Assembly (NCBI GenBank): GCA_001917665.1
Contig: MNEL01000027.1
Location: 18,866-82,865, forward strand
Direction: 5' to 3'
Source of the DNA: Gemmatimonadetes bacterium 13_1_40CM_69_22
Lineage (GTDB): Bacteria > Gemmatimonadota > Gemmatimonadetes > Gemmatimonadales > GWC2-71-9
DNA length: 64,000 nucleotides
Positions 7,976 through 59,528 of the stretch are shown here, in pieces. Within the stretch, counting starts at the first letter, position 1. Each line of letters opens with the position of its first letter. Both the position numbers and the translations under genes were made by a program. The notes under the pieces were generated by a model. That model was given only the letters and a program-made list of their open reading frames with translations, was not told where the DNA came from and searched no databases.

Positions 7976-8625
7976 TGGTTCGGCAGCGTGAACTTGCCGC
8001 CCGTCCCCTTCGGGCGGACCGCCGTCACGACCTTGAAGTCAGGATCCGAGGTGAAGCCCTCGCCCTCGATGTGGCGATTCGGCTCGTCGAACACGAACGG
8101 CTTGTCGGAGCTCACCTGGTTCTTCAACTGGCTGTAGCGCAGCACTTCCGTGCGCAGCGTGGCGCCGTCGGTGCGCACCACGACCACGTTGCCGCGTGCC
8201 TCCATGTCGCCGGGCCGCCAATGGTGGGTTCCCTCGCGCGCCGTGAGCGTCGACGTCTCGGCGCCGCGGGGGTCGTAGAACGTGATGTGCACGGTGCGCA
8301 GCTCGGCGGTCTGCAGGGGCGAGTAGAAGTACGCGGTGTCGGCCCGCACGTGGGCCCGCTGGATCCCCCCTGCGGTCACGTAGTGCGACATGTTGACCAG
8401 CACCTGATCAGCCGTGTCGGCCGCGGTGATGGTCGCGGTGGGTTTAATGCCTGCGTCGCAAGCCCCTACCGCAACCCCGCCCAAGAAGGCGTAGCACGAA
8501 AAGGCGTAGCACAAAGACGTCGCGCGAAGACGTGACGTCGTCGCGTGACGTCTTTGCGTGACGTCTCTGCGTGACACCTCTGCGTGACGTCTCTGCGTGA
8601 CGCCTCTGCGTGACGTCGTTTGCAT
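7972..8625 (-). CDS. lptC: LptC-like LPS export protein (start uncertain)
   Basis: The C-terminal ~150 aa are beta-rich and OstA/LptC-like (...TAYFYSPLQTAELRTVHITFYDP...GNVVVVRTDGATLRTEVLRYS...). The stop overlaps the downstream start (ATGA). ATG 8625 directly abuts the kdsD stop (TAAATG), but the first ~35 codons are the translated 13-bp repeat array. An alternative TTG start at 8514 precedes the hydrophobic segment LCYAFSCYAFLGGVAVGAC. Confidence 0.6.
   Translation of the reverse strand: MQTTSRRGVTQRRHAEVSRRDVTQRRHATTSRLRATSLCYAFSCYAFLGGVAVGACDAGIKPTATITAADTADQVLVNMSHYVTAGGIQRAHVRADTAYFYSPLQTAELRTVHITFYDPRGAETSTLTAREGTHHWRPGDMEARGNVVVVRTDGATLRTEVLRYSQLKNQVSSDKPFVFDEPNRHIEGEGFTSDPDFKVVTAVRPKGTGGKFTLPNQ
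8531..8621. repeat. Tandem array: 7 copies of a 13-bp unit, consensus CGTGACGTCTCTG
   Basis: CGTGAC recurs at exactly 13-nt spacing at 8531, 8544, 8557, 8570, 8583, 8596 and 8609. Each unit carries a GACGTC / TGACGTC core (two units are mutated). Confidence 0.95.
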
Positions 8626-10141: not shown

Positions 10142-10399
10142 CGCGTGGCTGCCCGAGGACGGGGGGCGCGACTCCGGTGGCGCCCATACTTCCCCGCCCC
10201 GCCACGCCGTCGGACGCCCCCTGCGTCGTGCCCCCCGTCCTCGGGCCGTACGTGGAGGGCGGCGCCTGCGCGGCGTCCACCGTCCTCGGGCGTGGAACGC
10301 GATGGGCCCGCGGGTCGGAGGGGTCGGCCCTGGGCGGCGGATGCGGGGCGGTTGTACGGGCCGACCGCGGAGCGCCCGCGGGCCCAAGCGTTCAAGGGC

Positions 10400-22744: not shown

Positions 22745-23527
22745 CTACGACTTCGGTGCCGCAGGTTTGGCCGCGTAGATGAACTCGTAGTAGTCGCGCA
22801 TGGTCAGGTCCGCGGCTGCCTCCTTGTCGGCGATCACGATCGCATCACGGTGCAGCTGGATGGCACTTGCCGTCACCATGCTGGTGACCGGTCCCTCGAC
22901 GGCTTGGGCAATCGCCTTGGCCTTCGCCTTCCCGCTCGCAACCAGGACCAGCTTGCGCGCATCGAGGATGGTCCCGACGCCCATGGTGATCGCATAGACC
23001 GGCACACCCTCTCGGTGCTCGAAGAACCGGGCGTTGTCGTCGATGGTCTGTTTGGACAGCGTCTTGAGCCGCGTCCGCGAGCTCAGGGAGCTCCCCGGTT
23101 CGTTGAATGCGATGTGGCCGTCGGAGCCGATGCCCAGGATCTGCAGGTCGATACCGCCGCATTCCGCAATTCGCTCCTCGTACCATTGGCAGAAGGCGGG
23201 GTAGTTGCTGGTCGTGCCCGAGGGAATATTGATGTTGTGCCGCGGGATGTTCACGTGCTGGAAGAAGTGCTCGTGCATGAAGTAGTGGTAGCTCTGGGGG
23301 TGATTCACGGGCAGGCCGACATATTCGTCGAGGTTGAACGTCGTGACACGAGAGAAGTCGAGTTGCGCCTCTTTGTGCAGCCGCACCAACTCCTGATACA
23401 GGCCGAGTGGCGTGGACCCGGTCGCCATGCCGAGCACGGCATTCGGCTTGGTGTTGAGCACCTCTGCGACGATCTGCGCCGCGGTCTTGCTCATCTGCTC
23501 GTAGTCTCGCTGAATGATGACTTCCAT
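22745..23527 (-). CDS. nagB: Glucosamine-6-phosphate deaminase
   Basis: Start taken at MEVIIQRDYEQMS. Motifs: GMATGSTP...FNLDEYVGLP...GIGSDGHIAFNEPGS. Confidence 0.85.
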   Translation of the reverse strand: MEVIIQRDYEQMSKTAAQIVAEVLNTKPNAVLGMATGSTPLGLYQELVRLHKEAQLDFSRVTTFNLDEYVGLPVNHPQSYHYFMHEHFFQHVNIPRHNINIPSGTTSNYPAFCQWYEERIAECGGIDLQILGIGSDGHIAFNEPGSSLSSRTRLKTLSKQTIDDNARFFEHREGVPVYAITMGVGTILDARKLVLVASGKAKAKAIAQAVEGPVTSMVTASAIQLHRDAIVIADKEAAADLTMRDYYEFIYAAKPAAPKS

Positions 23528-32930: not shown

Positions 32931-34207
32931 TCGGCGCCATCCACTGCAGAGAGCACCGGCAGCTCGCGCTGACCCCGGGCGCGAGCCCGGGGACGATGCG
33001 AGATCTGGAAGGTCGGTCCCTCCGGGCCCTGCGGCCTGACACCGGGAACCCCGGGGACCCCGGGCTTGCGCCCGGGGTCAGTGGATGCCCAGTCCTTGAA
33101 GGTGCGTACCGTCCGGTACAGCGAGTCGCGCTCGACCGGCTGCTTCCCCGCCCCGCGGATGAGGGAGACGACCTGATCGTAGCCGAGCCACATCGGCGTA
33201 CCGGCGCCGGCCTCGTGGTAGACCCGCTCGAAGACGACGGTGCCCTCGAGGTCGTCGCACCCGAAGGTGAGGGCCACCTGAGAGATGAACGGCGTCACCA
33301 TCGGCCAGTGGGTCTTGACGTGCGGGATGTTGTCGAGCACGAGCCGCCCCACGGCAATGTTCTTCAAGTCGTCGCAGCCGGTGGTGGCCGTGCCGGTTCT
33401 GCCCAGAGCCTCCCCCAGCTCGTTGTGGTCCGGGTGGTACGCCAGGGGGATGTAGGTGAGGAACCCGCTGGTCTCGTCCTGGAGCGCCCGCAGCGCGAGC
33501 AGGTGGTCCACGCGGTCCGCCATCGTCTCCACGTGGCCGTACAGCATGGTGCAGTTCGAGGGAATGCCCAGCCGGTGCGCCTCGCGATGGACGGCGAGCC
33601 ACTCCTCGCCGGACAGTTTCTTGTCCGCTATGGTGGCGCGCGCCGCAGGACTGAACACTTCCGCGCCGCCCCCCGGGAGACTGGTGACTCCGGCGTCCCG
33701 CAGCGCGATCAGGACGTCGCGCACGCTCATCCGCTCGAGGCGTGCGAGGTGCGCGACCTCGACGGCGGTAAGCGCCTTGATGTGGACGCCCGGGTGCCGC
33801 GCCTGCAAGCCGCGGAACATGTCGAGATAGTATGCCAGGCGCAGCTTCGGGTGCAGCCCGCCCACGATGTGGAATTCCCGGGTCGGGTTGTCGCGCGCGG
33901 CGTCCGCTTCGGCGAACACCTCCTCGAGGCTCCGCGTGTACGCCCCAGCTTCCTGCGGCATGCGTGCGAACGAGCAGAACACGCAGGTGTTCCGCAGCAC
34001 GCACACATTCGTGGGGTTGATGTGCTGGTTCGCGGCGAAGTAGACGCGGTCACCGTTGGCCCGACGGTTGGCGACATCGGCGAGCCGGCCGATCGTCAGA
34101 AGGTCCGACGAGTTGAAGAGCACGAGCGCGTCATCGCGCGTGAGGCGCTCGTTGCGCGAGACTTTCTCGCCAATCGGTCCGAGGGCGGGGTCGGTGATCA
34201 ATGGCAT
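32927..34207 (-). CDS. mqnE: Radical SAM futalosine-pathway enzyme, most like aminodeoxyfutalosine synthase; Pro/Gly-rich C-terminal tail
   Basis: Start taken at MPLITDPALG (TGATG junction with the fabF stop). Motifs: NQHINPTNVCVLRNTCVFCSF, FHIVGGLHP, HIKALTAVE. The last ~55 aa (..GRKPGVPGVPGVRPQGPEGP..) are low complexity. Confidence 0.7.
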   Translation of the reverse strand: MPLITDPALGPIGEKVSRNERLTRDDALVLFNSSDLLTIGRLADVANRRANGDRVYFAANQHINPTNVCVLRNTCVFCSFARMPQEAGAYTRSLEEVFAEADAARDNPTREFHIVGGLHPKLRLAYYLDMFRGLQARHPGVHIKALTAVEVAHLARLERMSVRDVLIALRDAGVTSLPGGGAEVFSPAARATIADKKLSGEEWLAVHREAHRLGIPSNCTMLYGHVETMADRVDHLLALRALQDETSGFLTYIPLAYHPDHNELGEALGRTGTATTGCDDLKNIAVGRLVLDNIPHVKTHWPMVTPFISQVALTFGCDDLEGTVVFERVYHEAGAGTPMWLGYDQVVSLIRGAGKQPVERDSLYRTVRTFKDWASTDPGRKPGVPGVPGVRPQGPEGPTFQISHRPRARARGQRELPVLSAVDGAE

Positions 34208-35737: not shown

Positions 35738-36478
35738 TCACAGCACCATCCCGCCGTCGACGACCAGCAGCTGCCCCGTAATGTAGCTGGCGAAGTCGGA
35801 GGCGAGAAAGAGCACGGCGGCGGCCACATCCTGCCCCTGTCCCAGCCGGCCCAGCGGGATCGCCTTGATCAGGCTATCTCGCGCCTCGCGGCTGATCCCC
35901 CGAGTGAGCTCGGTGTCGATGAACCCCGGCGCCACTGCGTTCACCAGCACGTTGCGCGAGGCGAGCTCCTTGGACACGGACTTCGTGAACCCGATGAGGC
36001 CGGCCTTCGACGCTGTGTAGTTCGTCTGGCCCTTGTTGCCGGAGATCCCGACGATGCTCGTAATGTTGATGATCCGGCCCCACCGCCGCTTGATCATGCC
36101 CCGGGCGGCGTGCTTGGTGACCAGGAACGCGCCCTTCAGGTTGGTGTCGAGCACCGTGTTCCAGTCGGCTTCGCTGATCCGGAACAACAGGTTGTCGCGC
36201 GTCGTGCCCGCGTTGTTGACGAGCACGTCGATCCGGTGGAAATCCTGCTCGACCGTCGCGACCGCCCGCTCGACCTGTCCGGCCTCGGCGACGTTGCAGG
36301 AGTAGCCGCGCCCCCGCCCATCGCCGAGCGACTGGGCCGCCTCCTGCGCCTTCGCCCCGTCGCGGGCCAGCACCGCCACCCGCGCGCCCGCGCCGGCGAG
36401 GGCCTGGGCGATGGCGTAGCCGATGCCGCGGCTTCCCCCCGTTACCAGGGCGACCTTGCCGGCCAGGTCGATCTTCAT
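35738..36478 (-). CDS. fabG: 3-oxoacyl-ACP reductase
   Basis: Start taken at [20 protein letters not shown]. Motifs: NNAG...YTASKAG...LVVDGGMVL. 246 aa. Confidence 0.95.
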
Positions 36479-36491
36479 CCCCCCGCTGCCC

Positions 36492-36598
36492 CGAATGCGG
36501 AATGCGGAATGCGGAATGCGGAGTGTACGTGGGAGCGTCGGGAGGCGAGCGAACTTTCCCAGCAATTCCGCATTCCGCACTCCGCATTCCGCATTGCG
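36492..36598. repeat. Heptamer-built inverted-repeat element, copy 1 (fabD/fabG intercistronic)
   Basis: Left arm CGAATGCGGAATGCGGAATGCGGAATGCGGAGTG (36492-36525). Right arm ATTCCGCATTCCGCACTCCGCATTCCGCAT (36565-36594). The arms are about 30 nt and complementary, with ~2 mismatches and a ~40-nt loop. The right arm is identical to 58970-58999. Confidence 0.9.
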
Positions 36599-37540
36599 TC
36601 AGGCCGCCTCTAGGAAGCGGGCGACCTCATCGGCAGTCCCCAGCGAGACCGTGTTCGCCCCCGGCACCGTCCGCTTCAGCAGCCCCGCCAGCACGTTGCC
36701 CGGTCCGATCTCCAGGAAGCACGCGTCGCTGCCGGCCAGTTCGGCCGCACGCTGCATACACGCGACCCAGTGCACCGGTGTGGTCAACTGGTCGGCCAGC
36801 AGGCGGCGCGCCCGGTTGGCGTCACGCACGGGCTCGGCCGTGGCGTTGGCGATCACCGGAAAGCGCGGGTCGCGGAAGGGCGCTCGCTCGAGCGCGACGC
36901 GCAGCTGATTCGCCGCCGGGCCCATGAGGGAGGAATGAAACGCGCCGCTCACCTTCAGAGGGATCACCCGCTTCGCACCGCGCGCCTTGCAGGCCGCGCT
37001 CGCTCGCGCCACGGCCTCCGGGTCGCCCGAGATGACCGTTTGGTCCGGTGCATTCAGGTTCGCCGCCACGGCGACCGCACCACCCACGGACGCTTCGCGG
37101 CAGGCAGCCTCGACTTCCGCCGTCGCGAGCCCCAGCACCGCCGCCATGGTGCCCGGCCGCTCACTGCCCGCCTGATGCATGAGCTCCCCGCGGCGGCGGA
37201 CCAACGTGGCCGCGTCGGTCGCCGTCAGCGCCCCGGCCGTCACATATGCGGAGTATTCGCCCAGGGAGTGGCCGGCGGCGGCGGCGGCGCCGTCCGCCCG
37301 GGGCGCGATGACCGCGAACACCGCTGCGCTGTGGGCGAGGATGGCGGGCTGGGCGTTGTGGGTCGCCGTGAGCTCCTCTTCCGGTCCCTCGAACATCAAC
37401 CGGCTGAGGCCGAATGCGAGCGCCTGGTCGATCGCCTGAAACGTGTCCCGGGCCGCCGGGAACCGCTCGGCCAGGTCCTTGCCCATCCCGACTTTTTGAG
37501 CGCCCTGCCCCGGGCAGAGCCACACAGTGGCAGCTACCAC
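36599..37540 (-). CDS. fabD: Malonyl-CoA:ACP transacylase
   Basis: WLCPGQGAQKVGMG...AGHSLGEYSA...GAFHS. Start taken at GTG 37540, overlapping the fabH stop (GTGGTAG). An alternative GTG lies 15 nt downstream. Confidence 0.9.
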   Translation of the reverse strand: MVAATVWLCPGQGAQKVGMGKDLAERFPAARDTFQAIDQALAFGLSRLMFEGPEEELTATHNAQPAILAHSAAVFAVIAPRADGAAAAAGHSLGEYSAYVTAGALTATDAATLVRRRGELMHQAGSERPGTMAAVLGLATAEVEAACREASVGGAVAVAANLNAPDQTVISGDPEAVARASAACKARGAKRVIPLKVSGAFHSSLMGPAANQLRVALERAPFRDPRFPVIANATAEPVRDANRARRLLADQLTTPVHWVACMQRAAELAGSDACFLEIGPGNVLAGLLKRTVPGANTVSLGTADEVARFLEAA

Positions 37541-42480: not shown

Positions 42481-43631
42481 GCCGCCCCCCCCCCCACCGC
42501 CCCCCCCGCCTGCGCGACCGCCTGCTGCACGGCCTCGTCCATGTCGGTGAGCGCCGAGAAGCCGGCGGCGGTGAGGATTCGCACCGCCTCCGCCTCGTTC
42601 GTGCCGGTGAGCCGGATGACCAGCGGGACGTGGAGGGGAAACTGTTGCGTGGCCTGCACGATGCCGTTCGCCACGTCGTCGCACCGGGTGATGCCGCCGA
42701 AAATGTTGAAGAGAATCGCCTTCACGTGCGGATCCGCGGTGATGATGCGCAGCGCAGCGACGACCTTCTGCGGGTTGGAGCTGCCTCCGATGTCTAGGAA
42801 ATTCGCGGGCGCGCCGCCGTAGTACTGCACCAGATCCATCGTCGCCATCGCGAGCCCGGCGCCGTTCACGCAGCAGCCGACCGACCCGTCCAGCTTGATG
42901 AAGGTGAGCCCCGCCTCCCGCGCCTGTACCTCGGACGGCGCCTCGGCCGAGGCGTCCCGCAGGGCGGCGATCTCGGGGCGGCGGTCGAGCTCGTTGTCGT
43001 CGATCACCATCTTGGCGTCGAGCGCGAGGATTTTCCCGTCCGGCGTGGCGACGAGCGGGTTGATCTCCACGAGCGACGCACCTACCGCGTAGCACGCGGC
43101 GTACAAATTTCCCATGATCCCCGCGGCGCCGCGCGCCTGGCCGACATCCCGGTAGAGCCGGAGGGCGAGGCCAAGCGCCTGATGCGACAGGAGCCCGTAG
43201 CGCGGGTCGATCGCGACGCGGTGGATCCGCTCGGGCGTCGTGGCTGCCACTTCTTCGATATCGATGCCGCCCGCGGCGCTCACCATGAGCACGGGGCGCT
43301 GCGAGGCGCGGTCGACGATGATCCCGACGTAGCTCTCGGACGCGATGTCGGCCGCCGGCGTCACCAGGACCTTGTGAACGGTGAGCCCCTTGATCGTCAT
43401 CCCCAGGATTCGGGACGCATGCGCCGCCGCCTCGTCGGCGTTCGCCGCGAGCTGCACACCCCCCGCCTTGCCCCGCCCCCCCGCGTGCACCTGGGCCTTC
43501 ACCACGACCTTGCCGCCCAGGCGCTGCGCGACGGCGCGGGCCTCGGCCGGGCTCTCGGCGACGTCGCCGTCCGGGATGGGGATGCCATAGCGCCTGAGGA
43601 TGTCCCGCGCCTGATACTCGTGCAGGTTCAC
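42477..43631 (-). CDS. sucC: Succinyl-CoA ligase subunit beta
   Basis: (M)[15 protein letters not shown]...[15 protein letters not shown]...[10 protein letters not shown]. The GTG start overlaps the arcC stop (GTGA). Confidence 0.95.
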
Positions 43632-57577: not shown

Positions 57578-58858
57578 TCACGCCACCATCACGGGGCGCC
57601 GCCGGCCCGCGATGTAGTCTTCGAACTCGCTGCGGAACTTCTTGATGCCGGAGACGACGGGGGCAGCGCAGGAGTCCGAGAGCACGCAGATGGTCTTTCC
57701 CGTCATGTTCTCCGCGAGGTCGAGCAGCAGGTCGAGATCCGACGTTTTCCCCTGGCCCGCCAGGATCCGCTCGAGGATCTTCGTGGTCCACGCGGTCCCT
57801 TCGCGGCACTGGGTGCACTGGGCGCACGACTCGTGCGCGTAGAAGCGGGCGAGGCGCATGATCTGATAGACCAGGTCGGCGGAATCGTCGAACACGATCA
57901 CGCCACCCGAGCCCAGCATGGTGCCTTGCTCGACGGCCCCCTCGTAATCCAGCAGGCAGCTTTCCGTTTCGTCGCGGTTCAGAATCGGGACCGACGAGCC
58001 GCCCGGGATGCAGGCTTTCAGGGTGCGGCCCGGCTGCATCCCGCCGCACAGCTCGTACAGCAGGTCCTTGAGCGGGAAGCCCATCGTCACCTCGTAGTTG
58101 CCCGGCTTCTGGACCTGCCCGCACACCGAGAACAGCTTCGTGCCCGTGCTCTTCGGGTTGGAGAGGGACAGCTTCTTGTACCACGCCGGGCCGTTCGTGA
58201 GGATGGGCGGCACCGCGGCGAGCGTCTCGACGTTGTTGATCGTGGTCGGCAGGCCGAACACGCCGACGGCGGCGGGGAACGGCGGCTTGATCCGGGGGTT
58301 GCCGCGCTTTCCCTCGATCGAGTTCATCAGCGCGGTCTCTTCGCCGCAGATGTACGCGCCCGCGCCGCGGTGCAGGTGGATCTTGAGATCGCCGAACACG
58401 GCAGCGGCGCTCGCTTCGGCGAGCGCTTGCTCCATGATCGCATACGGCTCGGTGAACTCGCCCCGGATGTAGATGTAGCCGACCTCGGCCTGGATCGCCC
58501 GCATCGCGATCGCCGTGCCCTCGAGCAGCGCGTGCGGCGTCCAGCGCATGATCTCGCGGTCCTTGAACGTCCCTGGCTCGGACTCGTCCGCGTTCACGCA
58601 CAGGTAGTGCGGCTTTTTCTTCTCCTTGGGCATGAACGACCACTTGAGGCCCGTCGGGAAGCCGGCGCCACCGCGCCCGCGCAGCCCGGACTCCTTCACC
58701 GCTTCAGTGATGGCCGCGGGCGCCATCGTCTGCGCCTGCTTCCACGCCTCGTAGCCCCCGCGCTTCACCCAGCCCTTGTAGGTGCGCGCGTCCGGGTCGC
58801 CGAAGTACCTCGAGAGAACGGCGGTCTCTTTGGGATGCGGCTTGTGGGGGTAGCCCAT
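57578..58858 (-). CDS. nuoF: NADH-quinone oxidoreductase subunit F
   Basis: Start taken at MGYPHKPHPKE. Motifs: GLRGRGGAGFPTG.KW, NADESEPGTFKDR, ESCAQCTQCREG. The track's upstream 47 codons are a translation of the heptamer repeat element. Confidence 0.95.
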   Translation of the reverse strand: MGYPHKPHPKETAVLSRYFGDPDARTYKGWVKRGGYEAWKQAQTMAPAAITEAVKESGLRGRGGAGFPTGLKWSFMPKEKKKPHYLCVNADESEPGTFKDREIMRWTPHALLEGTAIAMRAIQAEVGYIYIRGEFTEPYAIMEQALAEASAAAVFGDLKIHLHRGAGAYICGEETALMNSIEGKRGNPRIKPPFPAAVGVFGLPTTINNVETLAAVPPILTNGPAWYKKLSLSNPKSTGTKLFSVCGQVQKPGNYEVTMGFPLKDLLYELCGGMQPGRTLKACIPGGSSVPILNRDETESCLLDYEGAVEQGTMLGSGGVIVFDDSADLVYQIMRLARFYAHESCAQCTQCREGTAWTTKILERILAGQGKTSDLDLLLDLAENMTGKTICVLSDSCAAPVVSGIKKFRSEFEDYIAGRRRPVMVA

Positions 58859-58880: not shown

Positions 58881-59000
58881 GAGTGCGGAGTGTGGAATGC
58901 GGAATGCGTAATTGAACGTCCAGGTTCGATCCCCCAAATCCGACGTCGGCCTCGACGCCTGCCCGATATATTCCGCATTCCGCACTCCGCATTCCGCATC
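58881..59000. repeat. Heptamer-built inverted-repeat element, copy 2 (nuoE/nuoF intercistronic)
   Basis: Left arm GAGTGCGGAGTGTGGAATGCGGAATGCG (58881-58908). Right arm ATTCCGCATTCCGCACTCCGCATTCCGCAT (58970-58999), identical to 36565-36594. The arms are complementary over ~21-25 nt, and the ~60-nt loop is unrelated to that of copy 1. Confidence 0.9.
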
Positions 59001-59006
59001 TGGTCT

Positions 59007-59528
59007 TCACTGGTACTTCCTCACGAGCTCCGCGACCTTCTCCGGGCGCACGCTCTCGATGAAGTCGTCGTTGATCAGCACCGGGGTCGCGAACCCGCAG
59101 GCACCCAGGCATTCCACCTCGATCACCGTCCACTTGCCGTCGGGGCTCGTGGCACCGAGCTCCTTCGCCCCGGTCGCCTCCAGCAGGGCCTTCACCACGT
59201 CCTCGGCCCCGCAGATGTTGCAGGGCGACGTCGTGCACACCTGCACGAAATGCGTTCCCACCGGGTGCTGATGATACATGGTGTAGAACGTCACCACCCC
59301 CTTGACGTAGGCGGGCGTGAGGCCGAGCAGCGCGGCCACCTCGGTCATGTCGCGGTCGGAGATCCAGCCGCGCTGCTGCTGCACCAGCCACAGCGCCGGC
59401 AAGAGCGCCCCCTGCTTCGTGGGGTAGCGGGCGAGGATCGCCTGCAGCTCGGCGAGGACCTTCCCGGTGAACACCGGCTGATACTCTTCCATCCCGGTCT
59501 CGTGGGCGGGGCGCGCGCTCACGCTCAT
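59007..59528 (-). CDS. nuoE: NADH-quinone oxidoreductase subunit E
   Basis: Start taken at [10 protein letters not shown] (ATGA with the nuoD stop). Motifs: ...VCTTSPCNICGAE...VECLGACGFAP-like 2Fe-2S motif. Confidence 0.95.
   Translation of the reverse strand: MSVSARPAHETGMEEYQPVFTGKVLAELQAILARYPTKQGALLPALWLVQQQRGWISDRDMTEVAALLGLTPAYVKGVVTFYTMYHQHPVGTHFVQVCTTSPCNICGAEDVVKALLEATGAKELGATSPDGKWTVIEVECLGACGFATPVLINDDFIESVRPEKVAELVRKYQ

Follow-up and report, generated by a model that had tools for sequence, protein, structure and literature searches.

A heptamer-armed hairpin in the fabD-fabG spacer of a Gemmatimonadota bacterium, probably a gene-less relative of PF05635 cassettes

The fab operon of Gemmatimonadetes bacterium 13_1_40CM_69_22 contains, between fabD and fabG, a long palindrome whose two arms consist of tandem heptamers, and the locus raises the question of whether such a hairpin is a regulator belonging to the operon or an insertion that happens to lie in it. 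We have analysed it within a stretch of 64,000 nucleotides of contig MNEL01000027.1 (positions 18,866 to 82,865; henceforth the window), which holds a second copy between nuoE and nuoF, and we consider it probable that both hairpins are gene-less copies, similar to miniature inverted-repeat transposable elements (MITEs), of a dispersed palindromic insertion with heptamer arms that resembles the intervening sequences (IVSs) of 23S rRNA. Full-length relatives of the hairpins carry a PF05635 gene in the design of a 23S IVS, which argues for an insertion and against a conserved fab regulator. This reading builds on direct observations of the family, namely its distribution, its polarity, its adjacency to stop codons, its presence or absence at orthologous sites and its link with PF05635. 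The connection with PF05635 and the IVSs is absent from the preliminary description of this DNA, and among the open-access literature no paper was found that reports the repeat string in this context or a link between PF05635 and heptamers; a search of the same literature for the exact string gave one match, which was unrelated.

The window copies and their orthologous sites

The spacer between the minus-strand genes fabD and fabG measures 120 nt from the fabG ATG (36476..36478) to the fabD stop codon, a TGA at 36599..36601, and the first palindrome (element 1) takes up 102 nt of it, at 36494-36595, in the form (AATGCGG)4 – 44 nt – (CCGCATT)4. Its left arm (36494..36522), which reads (AATGCGG)4 on the plus strand, becomes the 3' arm of the hairpin when the minus strand is transcribed, the 44-nt interior spans 36523..36566, and the right arm (36567..36595, likewise assigned to the minus strand) is the 5' arm on the mRNA and starts 3 nt past the fabD stop. 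An inverted-repeat search delimits the two arms as 29 nt each, 97% complementary and 44 nt apart, Tandem Repeats Finder reports a (GAATGCG)4.3 array at 36493-36522 and a (ATTCCGC)4.4 array at 36565-36595, and the genes flanking the two palindromes are identified by NCBIfam models as fabD, fabG, nuoE and nuoF. Folded as RNA of the transcribed strand, element 1 reaches -70.5 kcal/mol (z = -7.3), which agrees with the mRNA duplex of ~30 bp predicted in the preliminary description; the inverted heptamer arms of ~30 nt described there are confirmed. An unchanged copy of the element is present in an independently assembled metagenome contig of 99.55% identity over 3.1 kb, which speaks against an assembly artefact. 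Rfam gave no match at gathering score in the window, and a permissive Rfam search on element 1 returned solely sub-threshold matches to generic miRNA-precursor hairpin models. A short match at 23157-23172 of the window lies within coding sequence and looks like chance.

The exact 30-mer ATTCCGCATTCCGCACTCCGCATTCCGCAT at 36565-36594, which overlaps the 5' mRNA arm of element 1, is found again without change and on the same strand at 58970-58999, where 0 chance matches are expected, and the earlier claim of an identical arm in a second element 22 kb away, in the same orientation relative to its genes, therefore stands, the genes in this case being those of the minus-strand nuo cluster. Element 2 (58881-58999, between nuoE and nuoF) is a more degenerate palindrome in which the exact 30-mer forms the 5' arm on the mRNA, 7 nt past the nuoE stop (59007-59009), followed by a 57-nt interior of the 'GGTTCGATCC' type (58913..58969) and a degenerate 3' arm, GAGTGCGGAGTGTGGAATGCGGAATGCGTAAT (58881..58912), 22 nt upstream of the nuoF ATG (58856-58858); both arms are assigned to the minus strand. 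Its transcribed-strand RNA folds to -64.3 kcal/mol (z = -3.6). The two elements are located in transcribed spacers, a duplex of 29-31 bp can form from each, and no U-tract follows the hairpin at either. A tRNA origin of the GGTTCGATCC motif was rejected, as ARAGORN finds no tRNA in the window, and the motif is on present comparisons better read as a remnant of the tail or leader of an open reading frame (ORF). At the orthologous nuoE-nuoF site of a related genome (L193; L numbers denote the collected loci) the interior appears inverted relative to 58913-58969 of the window (GATCGAACC vs GGTTCGATC), either through independent insertion in the opposite orientation or through a flip by recombination between the arms.

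By its FabG homologues the window belongs to the Gemmatimonadales of the Gemmatimonadota. Among relatives with ~90% identical FabG the fabD-fabG spacer occurs in four states, the window's own included. The spacer of the L136 group is 19 nt long and without repeat, that of the L121 and L326 group consists of 34 nt made up of a solo direct (AACGCGG)4 array that ends at the fabG ATG, and that of the L130 group holds a 97-nt hairpin, (ATTGCGG)4 – 24 nt – (CCGCAAT)4. When AATGCGG...CCGCATT is removed from the window, what remains is TGA CGC|CGGGGCAGCGGGGGG ATG, which aligns with the empty site TGA CGT|CGGGGGCGAAGCGGGA GTG, so in this single example the insertion appears to have been precise and without target duplication; duplicated flanks were found neither in this comparison of filled and empty site nor in the table of element junctions. 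By comparison with the empty site of L136, the G-rich Shine-Dalgarno region GGGGCAGCGGGGGG that precedes fabG would be the uninterrupted remainder of the ancestral short spacer. Furthermore, an element found between mutL and miaA in another genome (L018) shares 85% identity with element 1, the interior being counted, and an element from the glmS-dtd spacer (L031) shares 79% with element 2, while the flanks match in neither pair. The palindromic insert thus looks mobile, and element 1 is, judged from these alignments, an insertion and not a conserved regulator of the fab operon. The selected fab-operon role that had been entertained before is not borne out, the orthologous spacer being empty or different in relatives this close.

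The gene context of the hairpins was assigned with our own codon-usage gene finder, a crude one whose output was compared with the gene calls at the fab loci; by this assignment 57 hairpins have co-directional, 6 convergent and 9 divergent neighbours, and 24 overlap a predicted ORF. Most of the 57 co-directional hairpins begin 0-7 nt past the upstream stop codon, which may be any of the three and often shares the first base of the arm, and among the 16 that leave 60 nt or more of their intergenic region free a stop-adjacent start is found in 10 against 0.9 expected (P < 5e-6). Possible reasons are a target preference, selection that keeps the next ribosome-binding site intact, or a full-length form that needs ribosomes terminating upstream. 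Copies are likewise found between tRNA genes, as a hairpin in the spacer of a tRNA cluster (L199 ~945-1020, and L248), and a heptamer array of 23 units adjoins an RNase P RNA gene (L168 5442-5600); no rRNA was found beside any array examined.

A heptamer family that brackets PF05635 genes

A scan of GTDB genomes, one per species, with three GGARTGC units as query yielded at least 120 loci in at least five phyla, which among the matches listed are mostly metagenome-assembled genomes of Acidobacteriota, Verrucomicrobiota, Planctomycetota, Gemmatimonadota and Chloroflexota. The exact 30-mer occurs at at least 118 metagenome loci, with the internal variant pattern AAT-AGT-AAT-AAT exactly kept at no fewer (at least 118), and an array is present in 59 viral contigs of IMG/VR, so that the proposal that the window hairpins belong to a larger family is supported. 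The viral or proviral contigs (L266-L324) carry mostly single arrays, a PF05635 match was seen in none of them, and they offer a possible route of transfer across phyla.

The unit of the family arms is a GCGGANN heptamer, nearly always present in four copies, and paired arrays are ordered (GCGGANN)n ... (NNTCCGC)n in 52 of 53 pairs in one count and in all 104 hairpins in another, even though the reverse order would give a hairpin equally well. The copy number peaks sharply at 4 in arms and solo arrays alike, and within each of three contig sets (9, 6 and 8 contigs, drawn from different samples) the spacer length is constant; the arrays therefore behave as fixed modules and not as slipping microsatellites. 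A preference for the period itself is evident at L001-L120, where 327 arrays have period 7 but 64 and 59 have periods 6 and 8, respectively, a ~5-fold excess of period 7, and the same loci hold 180 arrays of other heptamers that likewise peak at 4 copies. Examples of such heptamers beside GCGGANN arrays are GTCGAGG, GGTTATT, TTTGCCA, GCACCTT and CTTCGTC (e.g. L008, L016, L042, L058, L066, L093 and L104), and a few arrays are very long, with 10-23 units. Changes between lineages are paired in both arms (AAT/ATT, ATT/AAT, AAC/GTT, AGT/ACT), as would be anticipated if one factor reads the terminal repeats or if the palindrome is homogenised. The arms are furthermore without stop codon in all six frames, and gene callers consequently read through them and lengthen the annotations of fabG and of PF05635 genes. 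In L155 (~774-803) and L180 a single 30-nt array lies apparently in frame within a coding region, as an insert of 10 codons.

Where paired arms lie ~290-440 nt apart, most of the pairs checked enclose an ORF of ~120 aa, and this ORF belongs to PF05635 (23S rRNA intervening-sequence protein) in Pfam and to TIGR02436 (four helix bundle protein) in NCBIfam, its closest solved structure being 2RLD. Out of 12 arm pairs at distances of 286-5,713 nt six were checked, and four of these enclose PF05635 genes; a transposase was also sought between these six and not found, and ordinary genes were met as well. PF05635 genes within arms were identified in L037, L085, L154, L174, L261 and L262-L265. In one further locus (L144 333-697) canonical arms surround a different ORF of 74 aa (MNSDVREPVTIEAVREIWRIDDEWWREP...) that has no NCBIfam match and may be an alternative cargo. 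The association also holds when it is approached from the protein, since all seven tblastn matches to the PF05635 protein in the collected loci are bracketed by inverted heptamer arrays, made up of AATGCGG, AACGCGG, ATTGCGG, GAGTGCG and, in a contig of low GC content, an AT-rich heptamer. A distance of ~1-3 kb separates several of these cassettes from the array through which their locus was recruited, and the sampling is therefore not entirely circular.

The protein sequences themselves bear traces of the arms. In most of the 120 closest homologues of one cassette protein the annotated ends are translated arms, with N-termini such as RIADCGLRI, NAECGMRNAE and NAEGGTRNAE and C-termini such as NPQSAIRNPQCS, IPHSAFRIPH, VPRSAFRVPR and TPHSALRTPH, and in the tails of these homologues residue identity is 33% at a lag of 7 against 4-10% at other lags. 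Among 150 diverse representatives of clusters at 50% identity, collected with a tail-free profile, identity at lag 7 is still 14% against 6-8%, and the persistence of this excess indicates that the link between PF05635 and the arms is general without being universal. The family is large, 15,962 clusters at 50% identity matching PF05635/TIGR02436 at E <= 1e-3. Contigs that carry homologues of the cassette are mostly short, which may mean that the repeats break assemblies. The elements examined had neither a reverse transcriptase nor a template or variable repeat beside them.

Full-length cassettes follow a common layout of arm, leader GGAAAGGTGAGGTCGTG with a Shine-Dalgarno sequence and a GTG start, ORF, tail and arm (L262-L265, L174, L261 and L228/L233), the ORF continuing through the 3' arm. 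All full-length cassettes recovered from Gemmatimonadota lie between a CMD-family gene and obg, co-oriented with them and with no room for a promoter (L262-L265; L174 3327-3753; L261 3290-3726; L228 2922-3258). The arms at this site are of the AAT, AAC or ATT type depending on the genome. The 3' arm directly adjoins the obg ATG or shares bases with it, and the stop of the cassette ORF falls a few nt within obg, so that translation of the essential Obg may be coupled to the cassette.

The window copies lack the gene, since their interiors of 44 and 57 nt hold no ORF and tblastn finds no PF05635 gene in the window. Element 1 is a member of a family with 44-nt spacers that has the consensus GTCAGGGTGAGCGTCG..GCGAGCGACC..TGCA and a defined polarity; its left half looks like the leader with start codon of full-length copies and its right half like the tail of their ORF. 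We infer that the interior of element 1 represents a leader, with Shine-Dalgarno sequence and start codon, joined to the 3' end of a deleted PF05635 ORF, in plus-strand polarity and thus antisense to fab. In some members with short spacers the initial ORF codons survive (z = 5.7-7.3 relative to shuffled sequences), and when short spacers are compared as a population with full-length leader and tail by Smith-Waterman alignment, 30% exceed z = 2 and 11% exceed z = 3. L228/L233 represent an intermediate with an internally deleted ORF. A telomere-like or templated addition of repeats to captured fragments was considered and dropped, because the spacers form conserved families and the arms bracket a specific gene.

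Alternative explanations

The hairpin might instead be a cis-acting RNA structure selected by the host, either as an RNase III site or as a barrier to 3' exonucleases like the repetitive extragenic palindromic (REP) sequence in malE-malF, by which the stability or translation of operon segments is set. A very stable stem, a location in transcribed spacers that include those between tRNA genes, and a strongly non-random placement 0-7 nt past the stop, even where the next gene is distant, are all in keeping with such a role, but the turnover at the orthologous fabD-fabG site is in poor agreement with it and so are the tests at the RNA level. No preference for the sense strand is apparent from the frequencies of G.U and A.C mismatches (64 vs 68) or from sense and antisense folding energies (25 vs 32, p = 0.77), the complementarity of an arm to its own partner is no better than to shuffled partners (0.891 vs 0.885) and thus gives no hint of element-specific compensation, RNAalifold on 21 spacers finds 0 covarying pairs beyond the arms, and the interior runs with transcription in 4 cases and against it in 6, as at random. 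A selected mRNA structure, as envisaged in the preliminary description, accordingly finds no support here, while its more modest statement that the duplex is of the kind cut by RNase III is supported, and a possible action of RNase III gains indirect backing from the full-length relatives, which are built like the 23S IVSs that this enzyme excises; on balance we consider a host-selected hairpin unlikely. An intrinsic terminator that dispenses with a U-tract, for which there would be a strong GC-containing hairpin directly past a stop codon, is hardly credible, given that the U-tract is absent, that the elements sit inside fab, nuo and tRNA clusters at 0-30 nt from the next start codon and that the same sites in relatives lack them; here the earlier rejection of a terminator was right. 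We attach just as little belief to a hypermutable contingency locus in which slippage of the heptamer number would tune expression. Perfect tandem heptamers could in principle slip, and the few arrays of 10-23 units may be cited in its favour, but the sharp peak at 4 copies, the single spacer length within each set of contigs, the identical element in the 99.55%-identical strain and the exact AAT-AGT-AAT-AAT pattern speak against it, and the register slippage suggested previously is not borne out.

It is also conceivable that the heptamers are in the first place arrays of DNA or RNA binding sites with a spacing of 7 nt for an oligomeric protein, be it of the CsrA/Csp/S1 kind or a pentameric four-helix-bundle protein, and that the hairpin is secondary. 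Partnerless (GCGGANN)4 arrays indeed outnumber hairpins by 112 to 35 in the genome-derived set that spans several phyla, such an array stands directly before the fabG ATG in L121, the other heptamers at the same loci share the preference for four copies, and an RNA-binding protein has been proposed for the TAACTGA heptamer repeats (PMC4679880). The orientation of solo arrays relative to genes is however only weakly biased (27 vs 15), which likewise gives no support to a role of the GGA-containing arm as a CsrA/GGA or Shine-Dalgarno-like site; each of the many heptamers would need a binder of its own, and the paired form of fixed polarity dominates in the lineage of the window (104/104), so that we hold this explanation to be quite improbable. 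A REP element or bacterial interspersed mosaic element (BIME) moved by a REP-associated tyrosine transposase (RAYT), that is an IS200/IS605-like Y1 transposase encoded elsewhere in the genome, would account for an extragenic palindrome that is probably of high copy number, for the lack of a target duplication, as in relatives of IS200/IS605, and for a position past stop codons shared with many REPs. A GTAG or CGTC terminal tag is however missing, as the arms start with AATGCGG and end with CCGCATT, one heptamer recurs across phyla, and the gene found inside the arms is PF05635 and not a RAYT, and we therefore give this possibility very little weight.

Several points also weigh against the gene-less insertion that we favour. 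The spacers of the two window copies, when aligned individually with full-length leader and tail, are not significantly similar to them (z = 0.3 and 0.1 by Smith-Waterman), and their derivation is accordingly deduced from family membership. No known transposase is encoded in the element, the lack of a target duplication is read from one clean pair of empty and filled sites, and cleavage by RNase III is argued by analogy only. The single cassette locus of Gemmatimonadota fits one 'master' copy but would fit a resident gene as well, the placement next to stop codons could mean a function at the level of the host instead of an insertion preference, and the tests for selected base pairing in the sense RNA were all negative. 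Finally, the crude gene finder flagged 24 hairpins as intragenic, although the few inspected look like read-through of stop-free arms.

The window holds other repeats as well. At 8482-8617 an intergenic region contains 6.7 copies of the 13-nt tandem repeat GCGTGACGTCTCT, all built around a TGACGT core; two GGCGTAGCAC units stand before them, and the whole forms an imperfect inverted repeat of 52 nt that could be an iteron or an operator-like array. Three G+C-rich arms of 35 nt (GCCCGAGGACGGGGGGCGCGACTCC...), mutually 77-86% complementary, are found at 10151-10291, either as alternative hairpins or as another kind of palindromic element. Downstream of the fab cluster, close to the boundary of a gene (32969-33081), two 24-nt arms of 96% complementarity lie 65 nt apart with three copies of the 9-mer GACCCCGGG between them, and a long C-rich run, ccccccccccaccgcccccccc, is located beside or within a predicted ORF at 42485-42507.

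Known systems and significance

A close parallel to the family is the 23S IVS as known from Coxiella burnetii and Leptospira (PMC4990558). The terminal inverted repeats of the Coxiella IVS form a 28-bp stem with an S23p ORF in the loop, and the IVS is excised by an RNase III cut in mid-stem, its origin having been an unexplained question since the early 1990s (PMC4990558). The window arms, 29 nt long and 97% complementary, compare well with a terminal stem of ~28 bp, the full-length relatives share the promoter-less PF05635 ORF of ~120 aa in the loop, and both kinds of element sit in transcribed regions, are sporadically distributed and horizontally acquired in appearance, and have ORFs that tend to decay. 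The differences are that the window copies lie between fabD/fabG and nuoE/nuoF and not in helices 9, 25 or 45 of 23S rRNA, that the host sites here are intergenic spacers of mRNA or tRNA adjoining stop codons, that the arms are four tandem heptamers, and that gene-less derivatives, the window copies among them, are scattered at many loci. With MITEs the elements have in common a size of ~100-120 bp, the lack of coding capacity, terminal inverted repeats, many dispersed copies and an apparent origin by internal deletion of a longer, gene-carrying element, but the arms are tandem repeats, the sole empty/filled pair shows no target-site duplication, and the long form encodes only the PF05635 protein and no recognised transposase.

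The likeness drawn earlier to REP elements holds for position and fails for the terminal tag. Like the REPs and BIMEs of enterobacteria and pseudomonads, the elements are extragenic palindromes that lie in operons or past stop codons, are transcribed and form stable hairpins able to protect upstream mRNA. REPs are in general species-specific, whereas the same sequence is met here across phyla, in a stem that is much longer (29-31 bp) and without link to a RAYT. REP super-families are defined by GTAG/CGTC tags (PMC3733652), which the present arms lack. Heptanucleotide repeats, that is the short tandemly repeated repetitive (STRR) sequences of cyanobacteria and the TAACTGA repeats of Beggiatoaceae, Cyanobacteria and Bacteroidetes (PMC4679880), are similar in being short intergenic arrays that often abut ORF boundaries, are mixed with other heptamer arrays, are patchy across phyla and have no accepted function. 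The TAACTGA-type repeats are however described as direct repeats, with one inverted case among 170 sets (PMC4679880), while the form that defines the present family is an inverted pair of fixed polarity that is linked with PF05635. Avd, which serves diversity-generating retroelements as an accessory protein, is a relative of PF05635 (PMC10053308), and the cargo protein falls into one four-helix-bundle family with it (PF05635/cd16375), but the further parts of such retroelements were, as noted above, not seen beside the elements examined. From simple-sequence contingency loci, lastly, the family differs in showing no polymorphism of repeat number in the sets of 9, 6 and 8 contigs or in the 99.55%-identical strain. 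Element 1 is thus IVS-like in design and REP-like in position and yet fails one defining test of each named family.

Taken together, these comparisons suggest an ancestral cassette consisting of a promoter-less PF05635/TIGR02436 gene of ~120 aa, Avd-like in nature, between (GCGGANN)4 ... (NNTCCGC)4 arms, of which the window copies would have kept the arms and, presumably, the leader and the 3' end of the lost ORF. Insertion would have been precise, a few nt past the fabD and nuoE stops and upstream of the ribosome-binding site of the next gene, with no duplication of the target. The inserts would then be transcribed together with their operons and fold into duplexes of 29-31 bp, and it is plausible, by analogy with the IVSs, that RNase III cuts the 29-bp stem in the middle, which would part fabH-fabD from fabG-acpP-fabF and nuoA-E from nuoF and the genes that follow. 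If left uncut, the stem would instead provide the upstream segment with a protective 3' hairpin as a REP does. For the host, the element would be a tolerated selfish or neutral insert and no dedicated regulator of fab or nuo.

The interest of the finding lies mainly in the general link between PF05635, heptamer arrays and IVSs and less in the fabD-fabG copy. PF05635/TIGR02436 is a very large orphan family in which the Avd proteins of diversity-generating retroelements are the sole relatives of known role. Inverted four-heptamer arrays regularly flank its genes, and gene-less palindromes lie past the stop codons of essential operons in several soil phyla, which yields a single testable model for this orphan family, for the origin of the 23S IVSs and for the heptanucleotide repeats of bacteria. 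A bolder proposal, which we put forward as speculative and with a rather small chance of being correct, is that heptamer-armed PF05635 cassettes constitute a distinct selfish class that resides in transcribed spacers (rRNA, tRNA and operon junctions) and is tolerated by way of removal or splitting by RNase III, that an Avd-like pentamer recognises 4-5 heptamers of the arms and aids spread or maintenance, perhaps together with a reverse transcriptase or recombinase of the host, and that the gene-less hairpins are parasites of this system. If true, it would tie together the origin of the 23S IVSs, thousands of orphan genes annotated as 'four helix bundle protein' and the heptanucleotide repeats of bacteria.

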